NCBI GenBank assembly: GCA_046309355.1
Contig: JBKCPL010000062.1
Span: 778 to 64,777, forward strand
Reading direction: 5' to 3'
DNA: 64,000 nt
DNA from: Bacteroidota bacterium
GTDB taxonomy: Bacteria > Bacteroidota > Bacteroidia > UKL13-3
A model generated the notes under the pieces. The model worked only from the letters and a program-made list of their open reading frames with translations. It was not told the origin of the DNA and searched no databases. Below, piece after piece: positions 29,301-64,000 of this stretch. The first letter of the stretch is position 1. The number at the start of each line of letters is the position of its first letter. The position numbers and the translations under genes were made by a program.

Positions 29301-30928
29301 ATGGCGATATGGAAGGTTTGGCAGCATGGATTGATTACAATGATGACGGTGACTTTGACGATCCTGATGAATTCATCGCCACCTTTGCTCCCAGTATGGG
29401 TGTAGTGAATTCATCGCCTGTTACAGTACCGCTGCAAACGATTACAGGCATAACACTGCGTATGCGTGTTCGCGCTATCTTTAACACACTCATTGGTGCT
29501 TCACAATCGTGCACGGCAGTGCAGTGGGGTGAAACGGAAGATTTTCAGGTACAAATTTTACCTGCACCTACACCTACCACGTATGTTTGGAATCAAACAA
29601 CACCGGCTAACTTCAATACAGCTTCAAACTGGACACCGGCCAGAGCAGCTACTAATTTAAACGACCGACTTGTATTTAACTCGGGTGGTGTAGTAACAGT
29701 AAACACATTGCCCACGCAGCGTGTAGCAAGTCTCGAACTGCTTAATGGAACAACGCTGCAGTTGCAATCAACGTCACAAAACACATTGACTGCAACCGAT
29801 TCACTATACTTAACTTCGGGTAAAGTTGTTACAGATGCGAACACCAATATGTGCATCGGACGCAGAAATTTTGCCGGTGTACTAACCGGATCTGGATATG
29901 TGAACGGTATTTTAGTAAGATGGATAACAGGTACAGGCACCTACACGTTCCCGATTTATGACATGGATACTAACCGTCAGGTTACTGTGATCGTAACAGC
30001 AGCACCTACCGAGCCAGGCACTTTGGCCGCTCGTTTTGTTCGCGGACAACCGTCAACCAACGGGTTGCCATTAACAGATGGCAGTATTCTGGTGAATCGT
30101 GTGGCACAAAACGGTGTATGGCGCTTAACATCCGGGAATAATCTTGGATCGTTACAATATAATCTGACCGTTCGTGCAGATTCGTTTGCCGGTGTATACA
30201 ATGTTGCCGGTTTAAGTCTGTTGCGTAGAGACAATAATACTGCGGCATGGACAGTGAGCGGAAACTATGTAGCTGCTACCGGCAGTAGGTATACGCCACT
30301 GGTTAGTCGTACCAATCTTTCTAGTCTTGGTGAATTTACCTTGGGCAGCGATACTGCAATGAATCCGCTACCGGTTGAGTGGCTTAAATTTACAGGACAC
30401 GTTTCGCACACGCATGCGGTATTGCGATGGGCTACCGCTACCGAAAAAAATAACAGCCACTTTATTGTTCAACGTTCGGCAGATGCAGTAAACTTTACCA
30501 CCATAGGATACGTGAAAGGAAAAGGAAATTCGGTATCCGTGACTGATTATGAATATACGGATGACCAGGTTTTCACGCAAACACCATCTGCATACTACCG
30601 ACTGATACAAGAAGACCTAGACGGCACACAATCGTTTAGCAGAATTATTTATTTGACGGCCACACCACAAAACGAGCTATTACAGGTTATTCCCAATCCA
30701 TTCAACAAAGCACCTGATATGGTATTTAGCAGTGCAACGAATGAAACAGTTGCCGTGTTGATTACCGACATCAGCGGACGAACACTCGCCACACAAACTG
30801 TGTATGTGCAGGAAGGAATAAACCGCATACAAGTATCATCTGTAAGCACACTGCCCGCAGGCATTTATTTCATATCACTGAGTGGAGTTGAAAGCAGAAC
30901 CTGCAGGGTTATCAAACTTCACGATTAA
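23315..30928 (+). CDS. giant T9SS-secreted surface protein, tandem paralog of the upstream gene
   Basis: 2537 aa with the same architecture. The N-terminal domain aligns with gene A (VYLAESFENAFTGNPAAPAGWSQ... against VYFAENFDSAFTGTPAAPPGWTQ...). It has three GEVED-type domains at about 26391-26840, 27738-28215 and 29110-29560, and the CTD at 30686-30925. Confidence 0.85.
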   Translation: MHPFTFVKYMNTGIKILFTVILLSFGLKPVEAQVYLAESFENAFTGNPAAPAGWSQSRIRPVVTSAERDWVRNTFSVGAWAITGGTLPPSPGAFHGNSVLFLQDIGFGGAASPLTERRISSPAMNLSTATSPYVRFYLFYPQDPCLNINLRVVISPDNGTTWHTLSNIMSGLNTTTSPNQWAKINVPIPARYRTTQTRVGFATVNRNGANNIFIDSVSVLEYTPTTITSAASGNWNLPANWVGGVVPTSDHNVVISSGHTITVTVGLASGGVRCQNLTINSGGTLTYGANGSQLLQVFGDVTVSGTLSALNATNGRILYVGKNFTINTGGVATFNTGNSTLGTSAPLANLPLNTSGIVFCNSDSATFTNAGTLAGSRVNNIWHLGSNDAVFRYNDSVSVPLTFTLINGRVDANSRLTLGNAAVANTVNYVWRTNGSFTSAPVFNNTNINIRWMLYLSVFQSTVTPTTLIAGEEHRNNSGRVIEGYLTMNTHNNVELQYPLSFSALHTPFLQLQRGILLTSQANPLIFSSNYAGTTALAPSTINPNPTNHGSYVVGSIQINRPTTGNLQVSLPFGIGSAFNGIAPNGNQARTITINPGTNWNGESFLCTYSSGNATSRNVTGNLTTTMSNKMLRIQPLNGDLPTNTVVSLTAINYPFGNSDSLVGQQGQMFVVQGNSPNGPWVQRSSTNGLVSPFVSNTLYTLNTAATSPGPISPLSSNGQYFRFATSAPVMQYTSSSAQRVTGNVSVGTANMPMLRIRVDISGIVPINITGLNLSTAGTSNTAAIANVKVFYTGTDSTFNTLLPFGNPVATPSGAFTVSGNSQLRTGANFFWIAYDVATGAAQGDSLIVQCSSVIVADTARTVTMPNASFRIVGTSMAFISANAFQTVTSKVFTGSFNNEILRLEVLMSDTGAPVPITQMQFRTLGSANPLTNITTATVYYTGGSAVFSPNIPLGNFSSPNDTFIVSGQLNLRNGMNYFWLAYDISSTASITDSVDGVFISLGVNGNNIAPISTTPAGNRKIKAQYCLPTYTLGCASDFISRVRLETIDNITTCNSQGFYTYFSSITPPTLLAGRTYTLKLNFNSEPNQFARAWADWNEDGDFVDSGEDLGIQTPANAGTGGMASITFTVPCTATNSVTRLRIRGGDDAQPQANQSCGASSNAYGEGEDYDINVVSGNREHLGNTALQQTGGAPASTLNTAILRVPVKVKVTNCNPGVINEFRFRTTGTTNTADILNAKLYKTGSSPVFSVANLLGTVASPSGVFSFVVNDSAVNDTNNYWLTYDIASTAPNGNLLDAVLDSVRVFNSWFIPANGNPSGSRTVATPMSFIGASAVHPTPDRVERGSANNPMLRMMVRTTSFGAPINATQFTLSTAGSQNTFFNLDSIIVWYTGSNAEFENPVLFGGVGMQTGTFTVSGIQSLNNDTNYFWVTYNIPPFASIGDTMDAEFINVTIGGTLQTTSSGNPAGFRIIRAAYCAAEAAGGTDAEIVGTYIGPLSNASNCSTTGGPGSIQNSYSNFTQILPATTFIMGKTYPFSINTSTCNGSFDAVLGIWVDLNQDGDFNDAGEELHMSPVFAYGANVIRTGTITIPCTALSGRTRLRVIMNETSSGPISACGSYTFGETEDYLINLVNVPTSYISSTVFQQSGSAPFGGVDVPVLRVPVVANANSCQPGTITRLFFTTAGTTTTSDILSAKLYKTGSSATFNTNTLLGTVTSPSGLFSFLLTDTVLDDTNNYWLAYDVSLTATGSNLLDATCDSILAFGSRFIPAVTNPAGALSVTAPMTFVDANALHPTLQVINSPSANNQMLRIMIRMSATGAPVPVSQFNLSTNGSQNPLVNADSIIVWYTGSGSAFTSPVFFGGVGPRSGNFSITGLQPLLNDTNYFWITYRVPQTAIIGDSLDAELINIVVNGVIRTPINGAPAGKRRIKNSYCIPVITTGCGFDILDLVTTTGATTNLTNSSTGCNGNPNSYQFNTSQTLVITQGATFTINLRADGDMEGLAAWIDYNDDGDFDDPDEFIATFAPSMGVVNSSPVTVPLQTITGITLRMRVRAIFNTLIGASQSCTAVQWGETEDFQVQILPAPTPTTYVWNQTTPANFNTASNWTPARAATNLNDRLVFNSGGVVTVNTLPTQRVASLELLNGTTLQLQSTSQNTLTATDSLYLTSGKVVTDANTNMCIGRRNFAGVLTGSGYVNGILVRWITGTGTYTFPIYDMDTNRQVTVIVTAAPTEPGTLAARFVRGQPSTNGLPLTDGSILVNRVAQNGVWRLTSGNNLGSLQYNLTVRADSFAGVYNVAGLSLLRRDNNTAAWTVSGNYVAATGSRYTPLVSRTNLSSLGEFTLGSDTAMNPLPVEWLKFTGHVSHTHAVLRWATATEKNNSHFIVQRSADAVNFTTIGYVKGKGNSVSVTDYEYTDDQVFTQTPSAYYRLIQEDLDGTQSFSRIIYLTATPQNELLQVIPNPFNKAPDMVFSSATNETVAVLITDISGRTLATQTVYVQEGINRIQVSSVSTLPAGIYFISLSGVESRTCRVIKLHD

Positions 30929-32785: not shown

Positions 32786-35700
32786 ATGGAAAAAAAAGTA
32801 CTCCTCCGTCTCGTGCTGGCAATGTTGACTTTAGCAGTAAGTCAATATACAAATGCTCAGCTTACCACCAATTATCCGGCCTCTAATCATATCGTAGTCA
32901 CGGGTACGCCTTACACCGACCTGGGAACTACGGGTAGTATTATCAGCACACTAAACACAGATGATGCGTTGTCATCGGCTGTGCCCATCGGTTTCTCATT
33001 TACATTTAATGGTGCCAGTTACACCGAATTTATTTTGTCAACGAATGGATTTATAAAAATGGGTAACGTAGCACCATCATCGGCTGCCCTTTTTTATGCC
33101 GGACCGCAAAGCTCGGGTGCCGGTACAGGTGGGGCAGCGAATAGCACCAATACACTTGATACTGCTTTAATCATTCCATTTAATCACGATCTTATAGGAG
33201 CAAGTGGTGCAGAATACCGTGTAAGTACAACGGGTAGTGTGGGTTCGCGTATCTGTACTATACAATTTAAGAATCTAACCGAAAAAAATACAACTATCGC
33301 TATTCAGTACGCTATTATTAATTTCCAAATCAAGCTATACGAGGGTACAAATGTTATTGACTTTGTATGGGGGCCATTTACTGCTAGTACAAACACTTCA
33401 GCTTTTCGCAGTGCGTTGTGCGGTTTAAAAGGCAGCGGAGCAACGGCTACAAATTTATTAACCGTAACTAAAGGAAGCGTAACTGCATGGAACCTGCCTA
33501 CTTTTCAAAATGGAAATTATACCGGCAACGCATTAAATTACGGAAACAATGTCGGTTCTACAAGACCCCTTCCGGTAGCCGGTACTATATATCGTTTTAT
33601 ACCTGTTTATGCCAATGATATAGCCGTACGCCAAGTTTATACCTTAGGTAAAATGCCTAAAGCGTATACATCACCTCACTTTGTGCGTGCAGCCATTCGC
33701 AATAGCGGAACTTCAGCTAGTACAGGATTCTACATCAAACTGCAGGTAACAGGTGCAAATCCGTTTATAGACAGTTTACTGGTTACCGGTATGAATCCGA
33801 ATGTCGATACGATTGTGACCTTTGCCGGACACAGTCCTACAACAAACGGATACGATACGGTGAGGGTATTTGTTGACCCCGATGACAATTCTTTTAACAA
33901 CAGCCGTATTTCAATACGAGATGTTAACAACGTGATTTATTCATATGCCGACCCTTCTGTTCCATCGGCAGGCGGTGTAGGTTTTACCGGAGCAAGTGGT
34001 GATTTTGTGGCAAAATTCCCTTACTCGGGTGTAATCAACGCTATTAATCAGGTGGGTGTTAATTTTAACACAGGTGGAAATACATTGCGTATTGGCATTT
34101 GGAACAGAAATACCGGAACCGGATTGCCCGGCACGCTGCTGTGGCAGTCGTCTCCATTTGTAACTATAGCCGGCCTCAATACCATCCCGGTTAATCCTCC
34201 CGTGGCGATTTCCGATACCTTCTTTGTGGGCGTAATTCAAATCGGAACGGTGAATGCCGCATTCTCTTTTCAAAATGAAAACCCCATACGAAATCAAACA
34301 TTTTATTACACCTCTCCCACCGGAACAAGTTCGTGGATTGACTTTTTTGCGACAGCCAGTGCATTTAGGTTCATGATCGAGCCACGCTTGCAATCGCCAG
34401 ATGATATGGGAGTAACTGATATTCTATATCCATGCCCTGTATTGCCTGCGGGCCAGCCAGCCATCATTCCCAGTGTGCGAATATTTAACTATGGCGCACT
34501 GGCTCAAACAGCTGTAAAAATTAAATGTGCTATTTTCAATGCAACAGGTAACCGTGTGTATATCGACTCAACCACGACTGGTACAGTAAACTCAGGCAAT
34601 TATAGTATCATCAATTTTACGGATACGTTTTCTACCTTTACACCGGGTAATTATACGATTAAATCGTGGAGTGAGTTGATAGGTGATGGGTCTCTGGTAA
34701 ACGACACCGCCACATCGCTTCTCACCATTACGAATATTCCCAACATAAAATCAGCAGGTACATTTCTGAATTTTGATGGTGCCGATGACCATATTGTGGT
34801 TGCCAATAATCCGTCTATTTCACCCGCTGCAGAATTGAGTATTGAAGCCTGGATTAATCCGACTAACTTTATCACTAACCGCACCATTGTTTCTAAGGAC
34901 TCTGCTGGGTTGAACCGTTCTTACCGGTTATTTATTAACACAACAGGGAATCTGGTATTTACCGTAAACACCTCATCAGGTTTGGCAACAGCTGTTTCTT
35001 CTACCATCATTCCTACAGCCAGCTGGACACACGTTGCAGCAACCTTTGACGGTGCCAACCTGCGTTTGTATGTAAACGGAGATACAGCCGGTGCATCTAT
35101 TCAAATTGGAACTATAAACTCATCAACAACCGGGCTATATGTTGGGAAAAATGGCCCCTCGGTGAACGAGTTATGGGTAGGCGGAATCGATGAATTAAAA
35201 ATTTGGAACATAGCATTAACCGAAAGCGAAATACGCAGACGCATGCATACCCGATTACCCAATTTAGCCAGCACAAATCTTCGCTTGTATTTCCGTTTTG
35301 ACGAGGGTCTCAACAATCCCATATTATCTGATGCATCAGGCAACTGCAATAGCGGAACCACGGTAAACATGGACGTACAAAATTCTACTACCGCTCCTGC
35401 AGTATTTATTTCAACCATACCCATTGGTACACCTGCGGTTGTTGATACACTCATTGGCGGTTCGGGTACCTATGTATTAACTGGGGGTGCGCTAAACATG
35501 AATTTCTTTAACTACCTGGGGTCTGAAAATTATGTATTGCATAAATTTGATACGGTGTACAGCACGTTGCCAACTGTAAATCCCGGTGGAGTAACTGCTT
35601 CCACTCCGCTTACATGGATTCTGTACCGATATGGTCTTGCAACGTATGACAGTATTTACGCCAGTTTCTTATTGGGTCCGGGTTACATACTGGGTACCGG

Positions 35701-36439
35701 TACCGTTAATGACATACATCTATTCAGAAGAGGAAATGGTAACGGGGGCGGATGGACACTATATCAAAATCCGGCATCTGCCATAAGCACCAGTCCTCAA
35801 TCAGCTACATTTAAATTTACAGCGGCTTCACAATTCCGTTTTCAATTCAATGTTGCCGGAAATAACAACCCATTGCCAGTGAGTATGGGTCAGCTTATGG
35901 GAAGAGCCACCGCATTGAATGCTGAACTAAACTGGGAAGTATACAGCGAATTGAACAATAAAGGATTTGAAATAGAACGTTCGCTGGATGGTGTGGTGTT
36001 CGAAAAAATTGGATTTGTAAACGGTAGAATGAACAGCAATGAACCTACACTGTATACGTTTATTGATGAAGGTATTTTTGCCAAAGCAGGAGTGGTAGGT
36101 TACTACCGCATTCGTCAGGTAGATGCAGATGGTACATGGTCTGATTACAGCAATACTGTTCGCATTGCAGGTGGCGCCACAGCCATACACTCCGTGTCTG
36201 TCATTCCTAATCCATTCCATGACCTGACACAAGTAAGTATTGATTTGATGCAATCCGGTTCAGTAGAAATTCAGTTGCTAGATATAAATGGCAAATTGTT
36301 ACAGTCCAATCATTACCTGCTGGCTGACGGGCTGCAAACGTTGCCGGTACGGGCTGATAACCTGCAAGCCGGTATTTACCTGCTGAAGGTAAAAAAAGCT
36401 GATGAAACGGTCACACTGAAGGTTGTTAAATCAAACTAA
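32786..36439 (+). CDS. large T9SS-secreted protein with LamG/concanavalin-like domain
   Basis: 1217 aa with signal peptide MEKKVLLRLVLAMLTLAVSQYTNAQ. A LamG-like block (LNFDGADDHIVVANNP...LSIEAWINP...YRLFINTTGNLVF...WTHVAATFDGANLRLYVNGD) is present. The pre-CTD module and the CTD occupy 35867-36436. Confidence 0.8.
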   Translation: MEKKVLLRLVLAMLTLAVSQYTNAQLTTNYPASNHIVVTGTPYTDLGTTGSIISTLNTDDALSSAVPIGFSFTFNGASYTEFILSTNGFIKMGNVAPSSAALFYAGPQSSGAGTGGAANSTNTLDTALIIPFNHDLIGASGAEYRVSTTGSVGSRICTIQFKNLTEKNTTIAIQYAIINFQIKLYEGTNVIDFVWGPFTASTNTSAFRSALCGLKGSGATATNLLTVTKGSVTAWNLPTFQNGNYTGNALNYGNNVGSTRPLPVAGTIYRFIPVYANDIAVRQVYTLGKMPKAYTSPHFVRAAIRNSGTSASTGFYIKLQVTGANPFIDSLLVTGMNPNVDTIVTFAGHSPTTNGYDTVRVFVDPDDNSFNNSRISIRDVNNVIYSYADPSVPSAGGVGFTGASGDFVAKFPYSGVINAINQVGVNFNTGGNTLRIGIWNRNTGTGLPGTLLWQSSPFVTIAGLNTIPVNPPVAISDTFFVGVIQIGTVNAAFSFQNENPIRNQTFYYTSPTGTSSWIDFFATASAFRFMIEPRLQSPDDMGVTDILYPCPVLPAGQPAIIPSVRIFNYGALAQTAVKIKCAIFNATGNRVYIDSTTTGTVNSGNYSIINFTDTFSTFTPGNYTIKSWSELIGDGSLVNDTATSLLTITNIPNIKSAGTFLNFDGADDHIVVANNPSISPAAELSIEAWINPTNFITNRTIVSKDSAGLNRSYRLFINTTGNLVFTVNTSSGLATAVSSTIIPTASWTHVAATFDGANLRLYVNGDTAGASIQIGTINSSTTGLYVGKNGPSVNELWVGGIDELKIWNIALTESEIRRRMHTRLPNLASTNLRLYFRFDEGLNNPILSDASGNCNSGTTVNMDVQNSTTAPAVFISTIPIGTPAVVDTLIGGSGTYVLTGGALNMNFFNYLGSENYVLHKFDTVYSTLPTVNPGGVTASTPLTWILYRYGLATYDSIYASFLLGPGYILGTGTVNDIHLFRRGNGNGGGWTLYQNPASAISTSPQSATFKFTAASQFRFQFNVAGNNNPLPVSMGQLMGRATALNAELNWEVYSELNNKGFEIERSLDGVVFEKIGFVNGRMNSNEPTLYTFIDEGIFAKAGVVGYYRIRQVDADGTWSDYSNTVRIAGGATAIHSVSVIPNPFHDLTQVSIDLMQSGSVEIQLLDINGKLLQSNHYLLADGLQTLPVRADNLQAGIYLLKVKKADETVTLKVVKSN

Positions 36440-48678: not shown

Positions 48679-50085
48679 CTATTCCCAGGCACCGATGCCG
48701 GGAGCAGTTGCACTGCGTTGTTGCATGCCTATATCGGTGAGTACACCCAGTGTTGTTCCCTTGCCTTTAGCCGGTGAATCGCTTTTAAGCCGCATATCCA
48801 CTTCGCCTGCATTTTCAAAACGAGGATCCTGGTTAAGTATATTTCCGTTTACATTCAGTGACTCAGTTTTTGTACGCAGCAGATTGGTTTGAAAAATACG
48901 GGTGGTGAATGATTGCTCCCCATCAGCAGCATTATTCAGCACTACTTCTTCTTCGCGGCTACCGTAAATAATCGTATTTACTACCCTGTAGTTGAGGGGG
49001 TATTTGGCCACTATATTTCCCGATTCATCTTTGAACGGAGAATTATCGAGCACAAAATGTGGCGTCTGACGGTTAAGCGTAAAGTTAAACGAAGCAAATG
49101 TGTTGTGATACAGCGTATACTCACCGCCCAGTACCCCGTAAAAGGTAAACTGACCACAATTGGTCACCACATTATTAATTGCTACCAGGTTTGCCGTGTA
49201 TCCAACAATACCCACAGCACTCATATTATCAATAAAGGATTCACGGAGCAATAAGTTAGGATTTGAATTAACAGGAAGCGAGTCTACCTCAATACCCAGC
49301 ACTCCGTTTTTAATGATGGCGTGCCTTATCACATTGTCTTTACTGCCCGGCAAAAAGCGTATACCAATCCACTGCCCTGCACGGTTTCTGTACTCAGCAT
49401 CCAGCCTATCACCTTCAAAAATAACGGGGCTTCCGTATTCGCCCTCTACCAGCAGGGTTCCCTGTACCAATATTACCGATTTTACATGCGAGTGTATGCG
49501 CGCTCCGGCTTTGATAGTAAGCGTTGTACCGGCAGGAATTAAAATGGAGTCGTAAATTACGTGTGGCTTATCGTTTTGCCAGATAAGCTGTCCGCCAGCT
49601 CCCGGCAGCACCTGATTTTGGTAGTAGTAAGCATCGCGGCCAAAACCTACAATATCTACATCCTGCAGGTTTCCATTGGTTTCAAACAGCAATTGTTCGG
49701 TAATGATAAAATCGTTTCCGGCATTTGAGTAAAACTGAACAAAAATGACGATGGAGTCATTGGCCCCAATTTCTTTACCGGTAATAGCCGATGAAGGTAA
49801 ACCATCTATATTCATACGTACCGATCCGTTTGATGTGCCCTGCAAGCGGATATTTACTTTTACGGTTTTATCGTTTTCGTTAATCACCCATAGCTGCTTG
49901 GTTACTGAAAGAGGCGGCCCCCCTCCCAGGTCAGAGAAAACCGTATCGAAAAAGAGGGTATCGGTTGAGAAACGAAGTATGGCCTTGGGGTCGGTTGTTA
50001 TTTCATCTTCCAGCTTGCACGAAACGAACAGCGCACCGGCAGCGATGACAAAAAAGAGGAGGTATGAGTTAAAAGAAAGGCGCAT
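48679..50085 (-). CDS. lipoprotein with probable right-handed parallel beta-helix
   Basis: Start chosen at MRLSFNSYLLFFVIAAGALFVSCKLED, which contains a lipobox. Repetitive Asn/Gly/Val turns are typical of beta-helix proteins. Confidence 0.5.
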   Translation of the reverse strand: MRLSFNSYLLFFVIAAGALFVSCKLEDEITTDPKAILRFSTDTLFFDTVFSDLGGGPPLSVTKQLWVINENDKTVKVNIRLQGTSNGSVRMNIDGLPSSAITGKEIGANDSIVIFVQFYSNAGNDFIITEQLLFETNGNLQDVDIVGFGRDAYYYQNQVLPGAGGQLIWQNDKPHVIYDSILIPAGTTLTIKAGARIHSHVKSVILVQGTLLVEGEYGSPVIFEGDRLDAEYRNRAGQWIGIRFLPGSKDNVIRHAIIKNGVLGIEVDSLPVNSNPNLLLRESFIDNMSAVGIVGYTANLVAINNVVTNCGQFTFYGVLGGEYTLYHNTFASFNFTLNRQTPHFVLDNSPFKDESGNIVAKYPLNYRVVNTIIYGSREEEVVLNNAADGEQSFTTRIFQTNLLRTKTESLNVNGNILNQDPRFENAGEVDMRLKSDSPAKGKGTTLGVLTDIGMQQRSATAPGIGAWE

Positions 50086-50110: not shown

Positions 50111-51022
50111 CTAATTCGTATGGCTGCACAAATCGGCCAAGGCATCAGCAGCTGTTTCAAACCGAAACCTGAATCCGGCATTTAGTAGCTTCTGAGCTGA
50201 TATATGCTGGTGTGCGAGCAGCATGGTGTGCATTTCACCAAACAATAGTTTCATGGCAAACCTAGGCACATTGGGCAATAAAATGGGTCTTTTTTGGGCT
50301 TTTGCCAGTAAGTGAGTCAGCTCGGCATGGCTTACGGGTGCAGGTGCTACACCATTCCACACACCTGTAAACGATTCGTCTTCCAGTGCACGTAAAAAAA
50401 TACGGCACAAATCGTGTATATGAATCCAGCTGGTAGCTTGTTTTCCATTGCCTAGAACAGCGCCTACGTATGCATTAACAGGTTTACTTACTTCTTTTAC
50501 AAACCCTCCTTCGCGGGCCAGTACCACCCCGATGCGGATGATGGCTACAGGCACATTCAGTTCACTAAACCTATCGGCTTCTTTTTCCCAATCTGAGCAA
50601 ACATGCGCCAGAAAATTAGCCGCATGCGGGGCATCTTCTGTCGTGTATGGCGGGGTATGATTGCCATAAATACCAATGGCTGATGCTGAAATAAACTTTT
50701 GGAGCCGTGAATCGGGCTGGGTTTTTATGGCCTCATACAGTAGGCGTGTTGACTGAATACGGCTATCATAAATTTCTTGTTTATAGGCATCTGTCCAGCG
50801 GTGATTGGCAACACCCGCACCGGCCAGGTGTACAATATGTGTGGCACCGCATAGTGCTTTAGGGTCAATAGTACCCTTGTGTATATCCCAACTGTATGAT
50901 TTTACCCTCGAAGAGCGCGATTTCCGCCCTACATGTACCACCTCAAACCCCCTGGAAAGCAACATATCTGTAAGTTGACTACCTACCAAACCCGACCCCC
51001 CTGTGATAACTATTTTTTGCAT
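50111..51022 (-). CDS. TIGR01777 (YfcH-like) epimerase-family oxidoreductase
   Basis: 303 aa. It has an N-terminal GGSGLVGS Rossmann motif and the C-terminal DUF1731-like tail typical of this family. Confidence 0.75.
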   Translation of the reverse strand: MQKIVITGGSGLVGSQLTDMLLSRGFEVVHVGRKSRSSRVKSYSWDIHKGTIDPKALCGATHIVHLAGAGVANHRWTDAYKQEIYDSRIQSTRLLYEAIKTQPDSRLQKFISASAIGIYGNHTPPYTTEDAPHAANFLAHVCSDWEKEADRFSELNVPVAIIRIGVVLAREGGFVKEVSKPVNAYVGAVLGNGKQATSWIHIHDLCRIFLRALEDESFTGVWNGVAPAPVSHAELTHLLAKAQKRPILLPNVPRFAMKLLFGEMHTMLLAHQHISAQKLLNAGFRFRFETAADALADLCSHTN

Positions 51023-51107
51023 TCGTTAGCCTTTGTGTAACAATCATAAAACAAAAACCGGGTTAAGATGTTTGAAGTTGATAAACAATAATTCAGGGAG
51101 GCATTAA

Positions 51108-52019
51108 GTGGGTATTTTTTCGATAAAAGATGTAGAAGCAGTTTCCGGAATCAAAAGTCACACGTTGCGCATCTGGGAACAACGGTATGGAATTATACAG
51201 CCCAAACGTACCGACACGAATATTCGTTATTACGATGACGAAGACCTGAAGTATATTCTCAACATCAGCATTTTAAACAAGCACGGCTTCAAAATTTCGG
51301 AAATAGCAAAAATGGGCCGCAATGAAATCAATGAGCACATTCTTAAACTTTCGAGCCGAAGCAATCGTTTTGAAAGCCAGATAAAAAGCCTGATTTCGGC
51401 TATGCTGCGATTTGATGAATATGCTTTCCATCAAATATTAACTACCAATATCATTCAGCACGGTCTTGATCAAACCATGATTGCTGTCGTATTCCCATTT
51501 TTATCGGAAACAGGGTTGCTTTGGCAGTTGGGATCTATCCATCCCTCGCACGAGCATTTTGCTTCCAATATCATAAAGCAAAAGTTGTATGTAGCTATTG
51601 ATGGAAATGTAGGTAAACTCACATCCAATCCTAAGCGCTTTTTATTGTTTCTACCCGAATATGAGCAACACACATTGGGTTTACTTTTTGCCAATTACAT
51701 TTTGAGGGCCCGCGGACACGATGTGTTATTTCTGGGTCAGCAGGTGCCTTTGGTAGATTTAGGCAAAGTGTCGGGCGACTGTGTTCCCGATTTTGTATTT
51801 ACCATACTTACTGCAGCGCACGTTCACGTTGATAAAGAAGCTTACATCAATCAGCTGTGTGAGATTTGGAAAGATGCTAAAATACTGCTTAGCGGGGCAC
51901 AGTTTTTAACCGGTGATTTTAATTATTCATCCCAGGTAAAACTGATTCACACCATGCAGGAGTTTATCAATTTTGTAGATACCATTACGCAAAGCGGATC
52001 ACTCGAAAAACGCAATTGA
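51108..52019 (+). CDS. MerR-family regulator with C-terminal cobalamin-binding domain (CarH/LitR-like)
   Basis: It has a GTG start. The N-terminal MerR HTH is YSIKDVEAVSGIKSHTLRIWEQRYG. C-terminally, a W-containing helical region is followed by a B12-binding Rossmann motif (EQHTLG, i.e. ExHxxG) and GHDVLFLGQQVPLVDL. Confidence 0.65.
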   Translation: MGIFSIKDVEAVSGIKSHTLRIWEQRYGIIQPKRTDTNIRYYDDEDLKYILNISILNKHGFKISEIAKMGRNEINEHILKLSSRSNRFESQIKSLISAMLRFDEYAFHQILTTNIIQHGLDQTMIAVVFPFLSETGLLWQLGSIHPSHEHFASNIIKQKLYVAIDGNVGKLTSNPKRFLLFLPEYEQHTLGLLFANYILRARGHDVLFLGQQVPLVDLGKVSGDCVPDFVFTILTAAHVHVDKEAYINQLCEIWKDAKILLSGAQFLTGDFNYSSQVKLIHTMQEFINFVDTITQSGSLEKRN

Positions 52020-52036: not shown

Positions 52037-52468
52037 TTACTCCAGTTCCATTCTGTCAGCTGCATTAGCGGGTACATCATGCTGAATCGGTTTGTCGTAT
52101 TCTAGCGACCTGTTGTTTAACTCATACAGCGACAACTTATCACTGGTAGTAGTTAATAGCCAGTCTGTACCGCGTTTATAAAATACCTGAACAGCAACAC
52201 CAAACGTGGAAGTAAATTTTTGTTCCACATTGCCTGCCGTGTCGGTATCGTGCAGTTCCATCAACCCGGTTTTGCCCGAAAGCGACTCAAAAGTGAGTGC
52301 ATGATTAGTCAGTTTTTCGGGAGCCGTGTATTGGCCATCCTTATTAGCATCCACAAAAAACTCTAGTTTTAAAAAAGGAAAACGTGCATTAAATGCGTCT
52401 CTAACCCGCCTGAGGGTAGTAAAGTGTGTAATAATTAGTTGCATAACGGTGTGTGTATTGTACAACAA
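52037..52468 (-). CDS. hypothetical protein
   Basis: 143-aa ORF with no recognisable motif. Confidence 0.35.
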   Translation of the reverse strand: MLYNTHTVMQLIITHFTTLRRVRDAFNARFPFLKLEFFVDANKDGQYTAPEKLTNHALTFESLSGKTGLMELHDTDTAGNVEQKFTSTFGVAVQVFYKRGTDWLLTTTSDKLSLYELNNRSLEYDKPIQHDVPANAADRMELE

Positions 52469-52548: not shown

Positions 52549-53007
52549 ATGGAAATCTGGTGGAAAGCGATAACTGTTATTATGTGGAGCTCATTTAAAT
52601 TCATGGTGGGTGTATTCACTGCGCTTGGGTTCAACTTCAGTTTTCCCGAAACCTTTATGAGTACTGTGGGTGGTGGTATGCTGGGCGTGCTGGCTTATCT
52701 GTATGTTTGGGAAATTTTAACAGCGCTATGGCGTAAGGTTTTTCCAAAAAAGAAACACCCCGGAGGCATTAAAATAAACAAGCTACGCAGGATTATTGTC
52801 ATCATCGTGCGCAGGTACGAGTTGTATGGTATTGCAGCACTTACACCGGTTTTGTTGTCGGTACCGCTGGGCACTATTCTGGCTGCATCTATTGAGCACA
52901 GCAAATGGCGCATTAAATTATTTATGCTGGTATCTTTTACAGTGTGGTGTTGTTTATTATTTGCTTTGTCACGAATATTCGGTGTAGCGGTTCAGGAGTT
53001 GTTTTAA
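52549..53007 (+). CDS. hypothetical small membrane protein
   Basis: 152 aa with 4 hydrophobic helices. Confidence 0.35.
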   Translation: MEIWWKAITVIMWSSFKFMVGVFTALGFNFSFPETFMSTVGGGMLGVLAYLYVWEILTALWRKVFPKKKHPGGIKINKLRRIIVIIVRRYELYGIAALTPVLLSVPLGTILAASIEHSKWRIKLFMLVSFTVWCCLLFALSRIFGVAVQELF

Positions 53008-58368: not shown

Positions 58369-61300
58369 TTAGTTGGTTTTAACCACTTTCAGGGTTGTGC
58401 TTTCTGTACCGTTGAGTCGCACAAAGTATATTCCACCTTTCAGTTTATCCAACTCATCCATAGCTATACGGTTCATACCTTTTTCAATCAGAACTTCGCG
58501 AGTGCTAATTACTCTGCCCTGAATATCGGTAATCGTCAATGTATAGTCTGCATCTTGCAGGCTTACAACTTCTACCTGAAGTCCGGTGTTGAATGGATTT
58601 GGATATGCTTTAACCGATGTCACGGCTCTGGTATCGCGGTTTACACTAACCACTGAGCTTAAGGTTTCAGTTCCGTCAAAGTCAATCTGACGCAGGCGAT
58701 AGTACAATGTGTTGGCCTGAGCAACAGCAAATGCTCCTTCATCCAACAATTCATAATTAACACGTACCACGCTGTATTCTTTACCATTTACAAACTTGAT
58801 TTCAGTAAAGTTCTCACCGTCAGCCGAACGCTCAACGCTGAATCCACGGTTATTTTGTTCGCTAGCAGTGGTCCAGGTCAGCAGTACATCTTCATTCAAT
58901 CCTTTGCCCTCAAATGCTATCAGGTTAACAGGTAGAGCTGTTGCTAAACTATCCCCTACTGTAAAGAAGCTTAAGCTGCTTACACCTGATATACTGCGAG
59001 AGTAAGGATCTGTACCGGTTGCTGCTCCAAACGATGTACCTACGTATGTCCACTTGCTGTTTGCTGTGTTATAACGCGAAACAGCTGATTGTGTACGGTT
59101 GAATCCACCCACTTCTTCTGCCGAATTCCAAGTAAGCGTAATCGTAGCGTTAGAACCACCTGCTACTGATTCGCTGATTGCCCATGTACGGTCAACCATG
59201 CTGGTAGCCAATGGCAATCCTGAGTTTCCGTTAACCAATACTCCGTTAAACACGCGTACCGATATTACATCTGTTGTTGAAGAACCATTCAGCTGTACCT
59301 GAGCCGGGGTAAATGATGTGAGTGAACCTACAGGGTAAGATACGTTGGTAGAATTATTCTGAACTGTTCTGTTTAATGAACCGATACCATTAGTTTTTAC
59401 ATAGTTTGTAGAGCTGGCATTTACTATTGAACCGGTTGAACCTATGGTCAGGTTATTGGCACCTAAACGTACTGAACCTGTAATAAATTCAAGATGTCTG
59501 TTCACGGTAAGGCTGGTATTCAGAATCAAATCGCCTGATCCAAGGTTAACTAGTACAGTATCTACGTTGCTTATAAGATTACCAGTATTCTGATTTCCTG
59601 TCAAGGCACTGTATTCTACTCTTGCTCCAGCATTGATAGTACGTGCACCGTTTACTTGTATATTACCAGTAATACCGGCTACTTCCAGGCCTTGAGGTGA
59701 TCCTACAATAAGGCGTGAACCTGATTGCGCAGTAAAGCTTCCGATACCCGAGAGTACTTCAGTACCGAAATTAATAGTACCACCGGTTTGTATTACAGTG
59801 TTTCCAAGAGCTGTTAGAGTACCACCTAAAGTAGCTACACCCGTTCCTGTAACGGTAATGGTATTGTAAGTACCCGATACTGTAGCGGCTGTTGAAACCA
59901 CCAAATCGGCAATTACCGTGTAAGGAGTTACAGATGTATCAGCACCTGAAGGCGTAACCACAATAATATTACCTGTGGTTGTTCCTGTAGCTACTACTGC
60001 TGTAATCTGAGATGAACTATTTACAGTGTAAGATGCTGCAGCAGTTCCGTTAAACGATACTGCAGTTGCACCTGTAAAGTTAGATCCTGTAATAACTACA
60101 GTTGATCCTACACCACCTGAACTTGGACTGAAACCGCTAATAGTTGGCGGCAAGGTAACAGTGAAGTTAGTACCGCTTGTGCCGGTTCCGGAACCATTAA
60201 CTACAGTTATTGCACCTGTAGATGCACCCGCTGGTACGGTAGCAGTTATGGTGGTTGTACTGTTTACTGTGAAAGATGAATTTACTCCATTAAATCTCAC
60301 ATTTGTTACTGCATTGAAATCTGTACCTGTAATAGTTACTGTAGTACCGGCAGGTCCTGTAGACGGTGTAAACGAGCTTACAGTTGGTGCTGGGAAAACT
60401 GTATACGGTGAGGATGACTCCACACTATCTGTACCATTGGTGACACGTATATTTCCTGTGGTTGCACCAGCAGGAACTGTCGTGTTAATGGTGGTATTAT
60501 TTACTACAGTAAATGCGGCATTCTGACCATTGAATCTAACACCTGTTGCCCATGTAAATCCAGTTCCTGTTATAGTTACAGCCGAACCGAATGTGCCTGA
60601 TGTAGGCGAGAACGAAGCAATGGTTGGAGCCGGTATTACTGTGAAATTAAATGCACTGGTTCCTGTACCAAATGAATTGGTAATTTGTATAGGACCTGTG
60701 GTTGCACCGGCAGGAACCGTAGTAGTAATGATAGTATCATTAACTACGGTGTAAACCGTTTGAGCCACACCATTGAAACTGATTGCACTTGCACCTGTAA
60801 ACAGTGTACCTCTGATTGTTACTGCAGCTCCTATTGATGCAGCAGATGGTGATACAACTGTAATAGTTGGAGGAGCAGCCAATTCGGTTCCGGTAAATGT
60901 TATAAATGAACCGGTAGATGAAAGACCGCCTACCGATGCTATTCCGGTAGAAGAATTAGAGGTAGTGGTAAACTGAGTTGTCCAAGCTGTAGGTACGGCC
61001 ACATCCGAAGTAGCCAGACGAATGTTATTCGCATTAATCGTTGTTCCAAGGGTAGCCGCATCGAAGTTGTAAACCAGTCCATAGTTATAGGGTGTAGTAC
61101 CACCGCTGATATCGGCACGTATGTAACAATTATTAAAGTTACCTGCCGGTGAAGATGGAGGATTTACACCTGTAAAGTCATATACTGTAGCACTGGTAGG
61201 TGCTGATGTTCCCCAGTTAATGGATGCAACCGGACGGTTGGCGAAAGTATACACTGTAGTTGTGTTGGAAGCGGGTGCTGCAGATGCTGTAGCCGCTATA

Positions 61301-64000
61301 GGCAGCATTGTAGGTGCGCTTGTCATGTGTGCCGAACCGATTGTAGTTGCTATACCTTGTGTGGTAGAACGAGCATTTCCGCTAAAGTCGATGTTCAGGT
61401 TATTGATTTCAGAACCCGTGATACCTTTACCATAGGCATACCATACTTCTGCATTCGATGTGTTCAGACCCAAGTTACCGGTAGCAATGCTGGTAAACAG
61501 GTTATTAATATTCAACTGACCTGCACCTGTTCCGGCTTGAACATAATAGCTAAGTATATCGCTGGATGTATTGTTACGCCAGTTGGCCAGGTTGTTGTTT
61601 CCTAAGCCCCACTCACCTACTGCATTCACATTGGCTGTTGAGAGCAGGTTGTAAGCTGAAGAGGTATTCAACCAGGTAGTATTGGAAGGAGAGCTGGCCT
61701 GATTCGAAAGTGCATAGTGGAAGCCTGTTCCACCGGTTCTTCTATTAACAATAATATTGTTTCTGAAATTATTGTATGTGTTAATTTCTGTACCGGTATT
61801 GTTTCCACGCAGGTAACCATAGGTATTCTGAATACCTGAAGTTGCTGCTCCGTCTATAACAATAGAGTTATTGTATGCATTGAGTGTAATAGCCACACTG
61901 TTGGTAAAGAGCCAGACACCTTTAATCTGAATATCCTGTGTCATTCCTGTACCCAGGGTAATCTGGTTATTTAATAAATAGATCTGGTTGGATGCTCCTG
62001 CTATAGCGATACCTGCTACTGTAGGTGTAGGGTTTAGACTCGTGCTGGTAGACGAGCTGGTGATGTCATAAACACGATTGCTTCGGAATATATTATCCTG
62101 ACCTGCTGTCATGTAAATACCATGAACTGAAGAAGGTGTTGCTCCGGTATTGGTTCCACGTATAGCATATACGGTATTGTTTATAACTGTATTAGTAGCG
62201 CTTGATGCTGAAACAACTATACCGGCTGCAATACCAGCTGTTGAAGTACTGATACTAGCGCTTCGCAGGTTATGAACAGTATTGTTCGCAATGGTAGGGA
62301 AAGCATTGTTCGTTACCAACATACCATACATTAAACCACCCGTACCCGTTGCTGTCGCAGTCATATTTGCAATGGTATTATTGCTGACGGTATAGCTGGG
62401 TGAATATGCAGCCAATACTGACAAGAACATTCCATAATGGGTAGTGTTACTGGCTATGCTGATGCTGTTAGCCGTTGTATTGTGCCCTATCGTATTTCCG
62501 CTGATATTGCCCACAACTGAACCATTTTGGTGATACAGTCCGATAAACTGGGGAGTTACATTAGCCACATTCATGTTTATTCCTTGTACATTGTTGTTTT
62601 GATAGGTCACATTATTAACACCAAAATAATGTATCCCATAGAACGTGCCTCCTGTTGACCACAATATGCTGTTCGTATTGGTTGGATGACCAATTTGGTT
62701 GTTGTTTATAACAGCATTACCTGCTTCAACACGTATACCTGTAAATAGTTGAGTAGCGGCATTGTTTGTAAACGCCAGATTTTGAACCGTATTGTTATTG
62801 AATAGTGAGTTGGCACCATTACCTACGCTGGCGCGTATACCATAGAATCCTATGTTATTAGGGTTGGTCCAAGCTGTACCTCCACAGTTAGGTGCACTAC
62901 CTCCAATGAAGTTATTCGACATATTATTACCACTCGAGAACGAGCCACCTAAGAATACTATACCTTGGAAGGTACCTGTAATATTTGGAACAAAACCGAG
63001 ACTGTAGAAGAAGCTGTTTCCTGTAATCACGAATCCGTCACCGTTGTTACCTACCACTCCCACACCGGCAACCACAAAGTTAGATATCTGATTATTGGTG
63101 ATTACGATATTATTGTTGTAAACATTTGGTTGACCAAAGGAATAGATACCCGCGTTACCAGGTATACCATCGGGTAGGGTAGCAATTGTATTGTTGGTTA
63201 GAATACAGTTAGTAACCGTATCGAATGAACATGGTGTAGTGAGGAACTGGCTATTGTTGCCCACACGAAACTCAATTGAACCACCGGCAGTATTCGAATT
63301 GCCTGATTCTACAATCAGGTTTCGCATAACCACTCCGCTGGCACTGCTCACTACAAACACGGCATTGCCTGTGTTGGCTGCGTAAGCACCTGTGGCCGCA
63401 ACGTTACGGAAACGCAACAACCGTTCAGTTGGTGAGCCACCGTTGCGTATACCGGTAAATTTAACCCGGTCAGCTCCTATTAGGGTGATTAAACCGTTAA
63501 CAGATGATGTATTTAGGAAATTACCCTGAACAGTTCTTGGAGAAGTAGCTGTTGCGTCAGGGCGAATGGTTAAGGTAAATGTACCTGCACCCGGTCCGTC
63601 TTCAGCGAATTTATTCAACTGAACCGCACCTGTTTCGTTTGTTATGTCCGATGTAATCTCAACAAATACATTTCCACCAAGTGTACGGTTATTAATAAAT
63701 TCAAACAAACCGCCTGCATTGGTAAGTGATGTATAGGTTTGACCGGCACCAACAGGTATAACTGTATTGGCAGCGATAACAGGAAGGAATGAGTAGCGGA
63801 ACGGATTAAGCGGATAATCCACTAAGCTGTTCACGTTTGTGCCTGTTGCTAAAGCAGGAAATGATTGCAAATTGCTTGCAGCATCCTGTGCCACTACAAA
63901 GTAGCGAATAGTATCAGTTTGACTTAATGCGGGTGAGAATGAGAGGTAATCAATACTAAATGAAGCTACAGCATTGGTTGAAGTACCGGTTACGGTAACC
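58369..64000 (-). CDS. very large T9SS-secreted protein (beta-helix region, 4 IPT/TIG repeats, pre-CTD module, type-A CTD); 5'-truncated by window edge
   Basis: The frame stays open to position 64000. The M at 63894 is a GTG inside the frame, not the start. Four Ig-like repeats each read TITG(T/S)xF...VxFNG...T...VPAGATTG.I.V. The CTD at 58372-58614 ends GIYFVRLNGTESTTLKVVKTN. Confidence 0.8.
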   Translation of the reverse strand, partial: VTVTGTSTNAVASFSIDYLSFSPALSQTDTIRYFVVAQDAASNLQSFPALATGTNVNSLVDYPLNPFRYSFLPVIAANTVIPVGAGQTYTSLTNAGGLFEFINNRTLGGNVFVEITSDITNETGAVQLNKFAEDGPGAGTFTLTIRPDATATSPRTVQGNFLNTSSVNGLITLIGADRVKFTGIRNGGSPTERLLRFRNVAATGAYAANTGNAVFVVSSASGVVMRNLIVESGNSNTAGGSIEFRVGNNSQFLTTPCSFDTVTNCILTNNTIATLPDGIPGNAGIYSFGQPNVYNNNIVITNNQISNFVVAGVGVVGNNGDGFVITGNSFFYSLGFVPNITGTFQGIVFLGGSFSSGNNMSNNFIGGSAPNCGGTAWTNPNNIGFYGIRASVGNGANSLFNNNTVQNLAFTNNAATQLFTGIRVEAGNAVINNNQIGHPTNTNSILWSTGGTFYGIHYFGVNNVTYQNNNVQGINMNVANVTPQFIGLYHQNGSVVGNISGNTIGHNTTANSISIASNTTHYGMFLSVLAAYSPSYTVSNNTIANMTATATGTGGLMYGMLVTNNAFPTIANNTVHNLRSASISTSTAGIAAGIVVSASSATNTVINNTVYAIRGTNTGATPSSVHGIYMTAGQDNIFRSNRVYDITSSSTSTSLNPTPTVAGIAIAGASNQIYLLNNQITLGTGMTQDIQIKGVWLFTNSVAITLNAYNNSIVIDGAATSGIQNTYGYLRGNNTGTEINTYNNFRNNIIVNRRTGGTGFHYALSNQASSPSNTTWLNTSSAYNLLSTANVNAVGEWGLGNNNLANWRNNTSSDILSYYVQAGTGAGQLNINNLFTSIATGNLGLNTSNAEVWYAYGKGITGSEINNLNIDFSGNARSTTQGIATTIGSAHMTSAPTMLPIAATASAAPASNTTTVYTFANRPVASINWGTSAPTSATVYDFTGVNPPSSPAGNFNNCYIRADISGGTTPYNYGLVYNFDAATLGTTINANNIRLATSDVAVPTAWTTQFTTTSNSSTGIASVGGLSSTGSFITFTGTELAAPPTITVVSPSAASIGAAVTIRGTLFTGASAISFNGVAQTVYTVVNDTIITTTVPAGATTGPIQITNSFGTGTSAFNFTVIPAPTIASFSPTSGTFGSAVTITGTGFTWATGVRFNGQNAAFTVVNNTTINTTVPAGATTGNIRVTNGTDSVESSSPYTVFPAPTVSSFTPSTGPAGTTVTITGTDFNAVTNVRFNGVNSSFTVNSTTTITATVPAGASTGAITVVNGSGTGTSGTNFTVTLPPTISGFSPSSGGVGSTVVITGSNFTGATAVSFNGTAAASYTVNSSSQITAVVATGTTTGNIIVVTPSGADTSVTPYTVIADLVVSTAATVSGTYNTITVTGTGVATLGGTLTALGNTVIQTGGTINFGTEVLSGIGSFTAQSGSRLIVGSPQGLEVAGITGNIQVNGARTINAGARVEYSALTGNQNTGNLISNVDTVLVNLGSGDLILNTSLTVNRHLEFITGSVRLGANNLTIGSTGSIVNASSTNYVKTNGIGSLNRTVQNNSTNVSYPVGSLTSFTPAQVQLNGSSTTDVISVRVFNGVLVNGNSGLPLATSMVDRTWAISESVAGGSNATITLTWNSAEEVGGFNRTQSAVSRYNTANSKWTYVGTSFGAATGTDPYSRSISGVSSLSFFTVGDSLATALPVNLIAFEGKGLNEDVLLTWTTASEQNNRGFSVERSADGENFTEIKFVNGKEYSVVRVNYELLDEGAFAVAQANTLYYRLRQIDFDGTETLSSVVSVNRDTRAVTSVKAYPNPFNTGLQVEVVSLQDADYTLTITDIQGRVISTREVLIEKGMNRIAMDELDKLKGGIYFVRLNGTESTTLKVVKTN

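Follow-up and report, generated by a model that had tools for sequence, protein, structure and literature searches.

What would a B12-dependent light-sensing regulator control in a stretch of genome that holds neither carotenoid (crt) nor photolyase genes? This question is raised by a 64-kb piece of contig JBKCPL010000062.1 from a Bacteroidota bacterium (assembly GCA_046309355.1; the whole piece is referred to below as the window), in which the gene for a CarH/LitR-like regulator stands divergent from a gene of the TIGR01777 family, behind which lies a gene for a beta-helix lipoprotein. The original prediction for this locus, made from the sequence alone, described a candidate light-regulated unit with noncanonical targets, and our open reading frame (ORF) map returned the coordinates of the three genes and of the 85-bp spacer exactly as it had given them. 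The best explanation of the observations as a whole is that the regulator is an adenosylcobalamin (AdoCbl)-based, light-responsive repressor that would shut off both divergent units in the dark, a reading to which we assign a probability of roughly 0.6.

The regulator is built from three modules: a MerR-type winged-helix DNA-binding domain (DBD; residues ~1-70), a four-helix bundle (~89-166), and a Rossmann-type cobalamin-binding domain (CBD; ~175-300). The assignment of MerR and B12-binding domains in the original prediction was borne out by two Pfam models, MerR_1 (57 bits against a cut-off of 21.6) and B12-binding_2 (PF02607; 28.5 bits against 23), and fell short on a third, PF02310, which is weighed below. 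When all PDB sequences were searched with phmmer, the CarH/LitR protein of Thermus thermophilus (TtCarH; 5C8D, 3WHP) was the best match (E=1e-19, regulator residues 2-220), with W139 aligned to W131, E149-H150 to E141-H142, and H188 to H177. An AlphaFold (AF2) model made with 24 orthologs as input (predicted local distance difference test score, pLDDT, 80.7) gave a winged helix, a four-helix bundle, and a five-stranded Rossmann fold. A Foldseek search of the PDB with this model placed full-length TtCarH at ranks 1-13 (E down to 1e-14), and the other matches among the top 50 were CarH CBDs (template-modeling scores 0.76-0.78), a CtMerR domain, and a photocobilin.

We compared the regulator with its orthologs in 80 Bacteroidota loci (44-67% regulator identity), for which one genome per species was scanned; all ortholog counts below refer to this set. 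In the recognition helix, RIWEQRY, which differs from the myxobacterial logo by one R-to-Q change, R21, W23, E24, and R26 are present in 80/80 orthologs and the whole motif is identical in 71. The Wx9EH motif, which had gone unnamed in the original prediction, is likewise kept in 80/80; in CarH it caps the adenosyl group, and its intact form separates B12-dependent CarH from B12-independent CarA (PMC9304148). Both motifs that had been named, EQHTLG and G.DVLFLG..VP..L (the latter within the stretch RGHDVLFLGQQVPLVDL), are present in the regulator, and the histidine whose loss among orthologs would have spoken against the prediction, H188, is found in all 80, accompanied by E186 in 79, while position 191 is G in 42 and S in 35. 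Also invariant are W139, E149, H150, G136, and P214, and G210 is kept in 79/80. The combination GxxW, EH, GxxH, and GxxxP has been validated as a signature of light-sensing CBDs (PMC11796333), and of its four elements the regulator carries three, GLLW, EH, and GQQVP, plus the His of GxxH. We conclude that, judged by sequence, predicted fold, and motifs, the regulator is a class I member of the CarH/LitR family, as had been proposed, with its architecture and cofactor residues conserved across the orthologs. This kind of regulator is already known, the present protein being a member from a Bacteroidota clade, and some orthologs are already labeled "light-induced transcriptional regulator" by JGI. 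We infer its B12 binding, its light response, and its oligomeric state.

The pairing of the regulator with TIGR01777, too, is conserved. The two genes are divergent in 34/80 loci, including almost all relatives above ~52% identity, and the orthologous spacers are mostly 63-94 bp long. The beta-helix lipoprotein gene lies downstream of TIGR01777 in 13 loci (gaps mostly 13-56 bp, with one overlap). In 10 loci a photolyase gene lies there, Pfam-verified by its DNA_photolyase and FAD_binding_7 domains, and TIGR01777 and photolyase appear to be co-transcribed in these relatives, since the two genes overlap or are <=17 bp apart in 9 of these 10 loci. Another clade (L037, L038, L040, L041, L056) has photolyase, TIGR01777 (called in three of four loci of this type), and a gene for a 341-aa protein on one side of the regulator; GTP cyclohydrolase I (folE) and an extracytoplasmic function (ECF) sigma gene are found on its other side in L037, L038, L040, L056, and L063. 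In the Cytophagales (Algoriphagus, Belliella, Cyclobacterium, and others; ~20 loci), the regulator lies within a carotenoid cluster in the order Caroten_synth, crtZ, regulator, ECF sigma, crtI, crtB, lycopene cyclase, ispH, and a crtW-like gene. Because of this photolyase and crt context, the regulator family is tied to classical light-response genes (photolyase, crt, folE). The description "noncanonical targets" therefore holds for the unit in the window, where a tblastn search with markers from the related loci found no crt, photolyase, folE, or ECF sigma gene (the original prediction had noted the absence of the first two), but it does not extend to the relatives, whose loci have photolyase and crt clusters.

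Two other features of these loci are recorded here. The conserved 341-aa protein between TIGR01777 and the regulator (e.g., L041:4584-5609) gave no Pfam match and is a further candidate light-regulated gene. In the Cytophagales (L042-L079, e.g., L048:6900-9102), the ECF sigma gene comes straight after the CarH-like gene, stands 0-22 bp from crtI, and has no obvious anti-sigma gene beside it, a layout like that of LitR-LitS, yet with the sigma gene built into the crt operon.

When the orthologous spacers were aligned, the sole conserved block was an inverted repeat, AAACA-N15/16-TGTTT, whose intervening 15-16 nt have diverged. It is exact in 31 of the 34 TIGR01777-linked spacers, the remaining three each departing from it at a single position, and its distance from the regulator start codon is 48-61 nt in almost every locus whose spacer is short. 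Exact matches number 46 in 915 kb of loci, and ~34 of them are directly upstream of the regulator. Since the element persists upstream of the regulator where there is no divergent TIGR01777 gene (L015, L036, L057, L069, L079), it belongs to the regulator and not to a TIGR01777 promoter alone; indeed, the only gene common to all element-bearing loci is that of the regulator, with its nearly invariant recognition helix. In more distant loci the spacers upstream of sigma-crt units and between folE and sigma carry the 7-mer TTAAACA or its complement TGTTTAA in 3-4 copies of alternating orientation, with centers 25, 19-20, and 25 bp apart in the sigma-crt arrays. Hexamers TAAACA/TGTTTA reach 14.0/kb upstream of sigma-crt units versus 1.1/kb in other intergenic and 0.5/kb in coding DNA, an enrichment of ~12-fold over other intergenic DNA. 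Multiple, regularly spaced copies in two orientations fit a multi-domain DNA-binding protein rather than a promoter. We therefore predict, with somewhat better than even confidence and on comparative grounds, that AAACA-N15/16-TGTTT is the regulator's operator.

Table 1. Features of the divergent locus, in window positions; residue numbers are those of the regulator
Feature	Position	Strand	Remarks
Lipoprotein gene, Ig domain plus right-handed beta-helix	48679..50085	-	468 aa
TIGR01777-family gene (YfcH/SDR39U1/ThyD-like), C-terminal DUF1731	50111..51022	-	303 aa; predicted light-derepressed target
Divergent spacer, TIGR01777 gene/regulator gene	51023..51107		85 bp
Predicted operator, inverted repeat AAACA-N15-TGTTT (AAACAAAAACCGGGTTAAGATGTTT)	51049..51073		Half-site centers 20 bp apart
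-7-like box GATGTTTG	51067..51074	+	Near match to TAnnTTTG; overlaps right half-site
Shine-Dalgarno-like AGGGAGG	51095..51101	+	6 nt upstream of GTG start
CarH/LitR class I-type regulator gene	51108..52019	+	303 aa; GTG start; in-frame TAA immediately upstream
Recognition-helix motif RIWEQRY	51168..51188	+	Residues 21-27; counterpart of RxWERRY in CarH/CarA
Wx9EH motif WQLGSIHPSHEH	51522..51557	+	Residues 139-150 (W139...E149 H150); aligns with TtCarH W131/E141/H142
ExHxxG motif EQHTLG	51663..51680	+	Residues 186-191 (E186-Q-H188-T-L-G191); H188 is the predicted lower axial cobalt ligand

The original prediction had pointed to two other stretches of the spacer as operator elements, TGTGTAACA (51034-51042) and TGTTTGAAGTTGATAAACA (51069-51087). 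Both are present, and only the TGTTT at 51069-51073 is conserved, so TGTGTAACA was rejected for the core operator; in the window, the distance between its ACA and that of the left half-site is 11 bp. The downstream AAACA at 51083-51087 was rejected as well, being out of register in orthologs, as was a third conserved repeat flanking the palindrome, since the near-clade information-content profile contains none. The promoter box of Bacteroidetes at -7 is TAnnTTTG, and the -7-like box in Table 1 is likely, from its sequence and position, a core promoter element of the regulator gene.

Separate from these is a perfect palindrome, (T)GTATATAC(A), found in eight Cytophagales spacers between the regulator and ECF sigma genes, upstream of the AAACA/TGTTT array (L046:7828, L048:6950, L049:6949, L055:6962, L061:5643, L068:6949, L073:6958, L076:6949); in four of the eight it lies exactly 123 nt before the sigma start, and it is absent from the spacer of the window and from the near clade. 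The start of the regulator gene also stands out. The start codon is GTG here, whereas most near-clade orthologs have TTG; a strong Shine-Dalgarno-like AGGGAGG/AGGAGG stands before it, and a comparable AGGAGG/GGAGG lies just upstream of the start in L001, L003, L005, L008, and L013. To our knowledge, Bacteroidota generally do without Shine-Dalgarno pairing, and the combination with a non-ATG start, odd for this phylum, may reflect special translational control of the repressor.

The divergent gene matched TIGR01777 at 297.4 bits (cut-off 207.35) over model positions 1-292 of 292, which upholds the family name it had been given. Its domains are Epimerase (77.7 bits) and DUF1731 (57.8 bits), and the NAD-site motif GxxGxxG appears as GGSGLVG at residues 8-14. 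On the model for ThyD (NF050030), it scored 221.6 bits, under the equivalog cut-off of 400; by these profile scores it is a bona fide TIGR01777 member and not an equivalog of cyanobacterial ThyD. Our literature search found nothing on TIGR01777 within a LitR regulon. High light induces ThyD itself (All2390 of Anabaena, also a TIGR01777 protein) 5-8-fold, and growth in high light depends on it (PMC11711299). The left half-site of the predicted operator lies 26 nt from the TIGR01777 start codon in the window and 10-26 nt from it in most orthologs, so the promoter of this gene must either overlap the palindrome or lie beyond it, and a protein bound to the palindrome would control TIGR01777. Light-derepression of the TIGR01777 gene is thus the best-supported model for its regulation, favored by the conserved pairing, by the close or overlapping photolyase in 10 loci, and by the ThyD finding.

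The lipoprotein gene is probably co-transcribed with TIGR01777, to judge by the 25 bp between the TIGR01777 stop and the lipoprotein start and by the synteny in 13 loci, which are the grounds for predicting its co-regulation. The 468-aa start (48679-50085) was used in three of four public gene calls, and the longest ORF reaches 50181. The signal peptide ends in ...LFVSC. The beta-helix label given earlier agrees with PF13229/PF28492 matches in the orthologs and with an AF2 model (pLDDT 85.9), in which an N-terminal PapD/ASH-like Ig domain is followed by a right-handed beta-helix; a Foldseek search with this model returned only generic Ig-domain and beta-helix matches, none of them informative on function. 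Residues 23-29 include KLEDE after the lipidated Cys (ortholog consensus C-R-K-E-D-E). The stretch is similar to an acidic surface-export signal of Bacteroidota lipoproteins, so the protein may be surface-exposed.

Taken together, we propose the following mechanism. The chromophore would be AdoCbl, carried by a MerR-type repressor. In the dark, an AdoCbl-bound oligomer (at least a head-to-tail dimer) would set two of its DBDs on the palindrome, whose half-sites are two helical turns apart. Because the palindrome overlaps the regulator's putative -7 box and separates the TIGR01777 start codon from whatever room there is for a promoter of that gene, binding would shut off both divergent units, that is, the regulator itself on one side and TIGR01777 with (probably) the lipoprotein gene on the other. 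UV, blue, or green light would then photolyse the Co-C bond, the oligomer would fall apart, and both units would be transcribed, TIGR01777 acting as a light-stress protection protein. The operator function of the palindrome, the promoter positions, and the lipoprotein co-transcription are likewise inferred.

We were concerned that several results weigh against this repressor model, and those on the DNA side bear on whether the palindrome is an operator at all. Within the window alone, it is not statistically unusual (one match versus 0.51 expected in 64 kb), and its weight comes only from location and conservation. Characterized CarH operators are tandem 11-bp direct repeats, nAnnTnnACAn (PMC8156234), and nothing of this type was found, there being no A..T..ACA in the window spacer and no pair of T..ACA 11 bp apart in any of 24 orthologous spacers. 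The class II LitR consensus TGTACA-N12-TGTACA, an inverted repeat overlapping the -35 element, is likewise absent from the window and all 80 loci. The direct-repeat test is a weak one because the operators of CarH proteins are reported to be highly plastic in design (PMC9304148). Precedent for the operator reading comes from LitR-family DBDs, which bind long-spaced inverted repeats with ACA/TGT (PMC9758184), and from the head-to-tail TtCarH dimer, whose two DBDs touch repeats DR1 and DR3 in a row of three 11-bp tandem repeats (PMC9304148), which implies ~22 bp between them; the half-sites here are 20-21 bp apart. A different explanation is that the conserved element is a promoter, either of ECF-sigma type (-35 AAC, -10 GTT, 17-nt spacing) or a sigma-A -7 box. 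The element can be written as AAC-N17-GTT, which resembles the general shape of an ECF promoter. Moreover, its right half overlaps the -7-like box, where the closest relatives carry a perfect TAnnTTTG (TATGTTTG), and half-site spacings of 15 and 16 nt are both tolerated. Being palindromic, such an ECF-type promoter could possibly be bidirectional; on the promoter reading the element would not be the regulator's operator, and a light-activated ECF sigma might drive TIGR01777, as in the CarQ and LitS cascades. An ECF sigma gene does adjoin the regulator in the Cytophagales and in the five folE-bearing loci listed above, and a related motif precedes the sigma gene itself, as it would for an autoregulated ECF sigma. 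The window, however, has no ECF sigma gene, the left half-site is conserved even without a divergent gene, and a single promoter has no need of the 12-fold enriched arrays of 3-4 regularly spaced 7-mers in both orientations upstream of sigma-crt units. Nor does the -7 consensus explain the conservation, since its "nn" should vary freely yet is invariantly TG, and the middle clade has A in place of its final G (TGTTTA). We therefore consider a promoter unlikely as the sole meaning of the element. It is very improbable, moreover, that the regulator and TIGR01777 are mere conserved neighbors, the regulator controlling only itself or distant genes while TIGR01777 and the lipoprotein gene have housekeeping roles and constitutive expression. 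The housekeeping surroundings, the wide occurrence of TIGR01777 without CarH, and the restriction of the lipoprotein gene's company to 13 loci would suit this view, but the divergent pairing and its short spacer survive in 34 loci down to ~52% regulator identity while other neighbors change, the sole conserved spacer element sits close to the TIGR01777 start codon in most orthologs, TIGR01777 appears co-transcribed with photolyase in 10 loci, and its homolog ThyD is light-induced.

On the protein side, the concern is that the regulator might be a CarH homolog without being a B12 photoreceptor, working instead as a CarA-like protein, as a sensor of cobalamin availability, or with a LOV partner as in class II LitR. 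CarA retains the His motif yet does not require B12 (PMC8156234), and LitR classes II-V work by other mechanisms (PMC9758184). The Pfam B12-binding model PF02310 scored 20.1 bits, under its cut-off of 32.1, so the Rossmann half of the regulator rests on fold prediction and motifs. The CarH equivalog NF052513 is its best NCBIfam family match, though at 95.2 bits far under the cut-off of 400 (model positions 4-211 of 274), which by this score makes the regulator a family relative outside the curated CarH equivalog set. The glycine of GxxH is replaced by Y185, at a position that varies among orthologs. The residue after the Trp of Wx9EH is Gln, with His there in 0/80 orthologs, so no bis-His photoproduct of the TtCarH-H132 type is expected. 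The R176-D201 salt bridge of the TtCarH dimer corresponds to Q187/Q212, and in the signature D/ExHxxG...SxL/T...GG, ExHxxG is present, TxL stands in place of SxL, and of GG the first G alone is conserved. In our judgment, these departures bear on the oligomeric state and photoproduct chemistry and are no argument against cobalamin binding. The surroundings are also silent: no B12 uptake or adenosylation gene was recognizable in the window and no cobalamin riboswitch was found there, the RNA-family search having given one tRNA only, and a literature search found no paper on B12 binding, light response, or DNA binding in this Bacteroidota CarH clade. In favor of a photoreceptor, Wx9EH, the feature missing in CarA, is intact in every ortholog, as are H188 and P214, with E186 and G210 each in 79/80. 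A full Rossmann fold is predicted that superposes on the CarH CBD, a domain that class II LitR lacks. The neighbors in relatives are light-damage genes (photolyase, crt, folE) and not genes of B12 metabolism, and no LOV or other photoreceptor gene adjoins the regulator. A nonphotoreceptor role thus seems to us improbable, and we retain the AdoCbl-based repressor as the reading that best accommodates the protein and its DNA.

The rest of the window consists of housekeeping genes (glyA, def, ruvX, thiL, glyS, ppx). A scan for terminators and sigma-70 promoters gave fewer promoter-like matches than in shuffled sequence and no convincing terminator, and is uninformative for the Bacteroidota promoter type. 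Downstream of the regulator are two small conserved ORFs, 52037-52468 (-), for a protein of 135-143 aa, and 52549-53007 (+), for a membrane protein of 152 aa; no family was matched by either, and both are equally placed on all public contigs with this regulator. At 5676-8671 (-), a TonB-dependent receptor gene is followed by a gene for an HmuY-like lipoprotein, a possible tetrapyrrole (heme/corrinoid) uptake pair without a riboswitch. Two giant paralogous neighbors, 15529-23175 and 23315-30928 (+), encode 2548 and 2537 aa with GEVED and BNR_assoc_N domains; a Por_Secre_tail match was detected in the first and none in the second. Large genes at 32786-36439 (+), with its own Por_Secre_tail match, and at 58369-63894 (-), whose counterpart on public contigs carries TIG and Por_Secre_tail, probably encode cargo of type IX secretion.

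What the locus would mean depends on two linked readings, which we put forward jointly as tentative and short of an even chance. If the first is true, the operators of Bacteroidota CarH-type regulators are alternating AAACA pentamers, 19-21 and 25 bp apart, with two sites here, which would be a new operator grammar. If the second is true, a TIGR01777 protein, with or without photolyase, is the local and perhaps the only regulon in many freshwater Bacteroidota; seen together with light-induced cyanobacterial ThyD and with SDR39U1, the chloroplast homolog, it would turn the near-universal TIGR01777/YfcH/SDR39U1 family into one of enzymes that protect against light or photo-oxidative stress. The family (YfcH, YfhF, SDR39U1, ThyD) extends from bacteria to humans, and we know of no biochemical activity for any member; the main value of the locus is as a functional lead. 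The pairing of a TIGR01777 gene with a putative light sensor, often in apparent co-transcription with photolyase, leads toward protection from or repair of light damage, and a promoter controlled by B12 and light would be a simple genetic handle for finding the TIGR01777 substrate. CarH-type photoreceptors also serve optogenetics, where a clade whose operator is a compact palindrome of two sites, and whose Trp is followed by another residue, would widen the design space. For ecology, the locus suggests light sensing by way of scavenged B12 in abundant lake Bacteroidota, even where no pigment genes are regulated nearby. As far as the literature searched shows, there appears to be no earlier description of the conserved TIGR01777 target, of the predicted palindromic pentamer operator, or of an adenosyl-capping motif in its Trp-Gln variant.

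Among known systems, CarH and class I LitR of T. thermophilus, Bacillus megaterium, and Myxococcus xanthus (PDB 5C8D, 5C8E, 3WHP) are nearest to the regulator. They share its three-module architecture and the recognition helix RxWE(R/Q)RY, and they are its best match in both sequence and fold. The regulator gene, moreover, is divergent from a putative light-protection gene, as litR is from crtB in T. thermophilus, and repression by promoter occlusion is predicted here as well. In contrast, overall identity is ~22-24%, the residue after the Trp is Gln and not His, and the dimer salt bridge of TtCarH is not conserved. The predicted operator is a two-site inverted AAACA repeat with a spacing of 20-21 bp as opposed to 3-4 tandem 11-bp direct repeats, distant orthologs have 3-4 alternating AAACA sites, and the predicted local target is an SDR-fold TIGR01777 protein plus a lipoprotein rather than crt genes.

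Class II LitR (PplR1 of Pseudomonas putida, PmlR2 of P. mendocina) has a homologous DBD and an operator that, like the one predicted here, is a long-spaced inverted repeat with ACA/TGT overlapping promoter elements (PMC9758184). Its regulon of phrB, folE, cryB (cryptochrome), and genes of unknown function, without carotenoid genes (PMC9758184), resembles the phr and folE neighbors of the regulator's orthologs. It differs in lacking the Rossmann B12 domain and in using a LOV protein as antirepressor, whereas the regulator has a full predicted CBD and no LOV gene among its neighbors. In Streptomyces, LitR is a B12 photoreceptor controlling the ECF sigma LitS, which drives crt genes (PMC11519972). 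The Cytophagales loci, in which an ECF sigma gene within a sigma-crtI-crtB unit comes next after the regulator and has operator-like arrays before it, share this logic; the window, in contrast, has no ECF sigma gene, and its regulator appears to act directly on the neighboring gene. Finally, ThyD differs from the present case in that Bacteroidota have no thylakoids and in the regulator involved, but the divergent gene belongs to the same TIGR01777 family as ThyD, YfcH, YfhF, and SDR39U1, and the light induction of ThyD matches the derepression predicted here.

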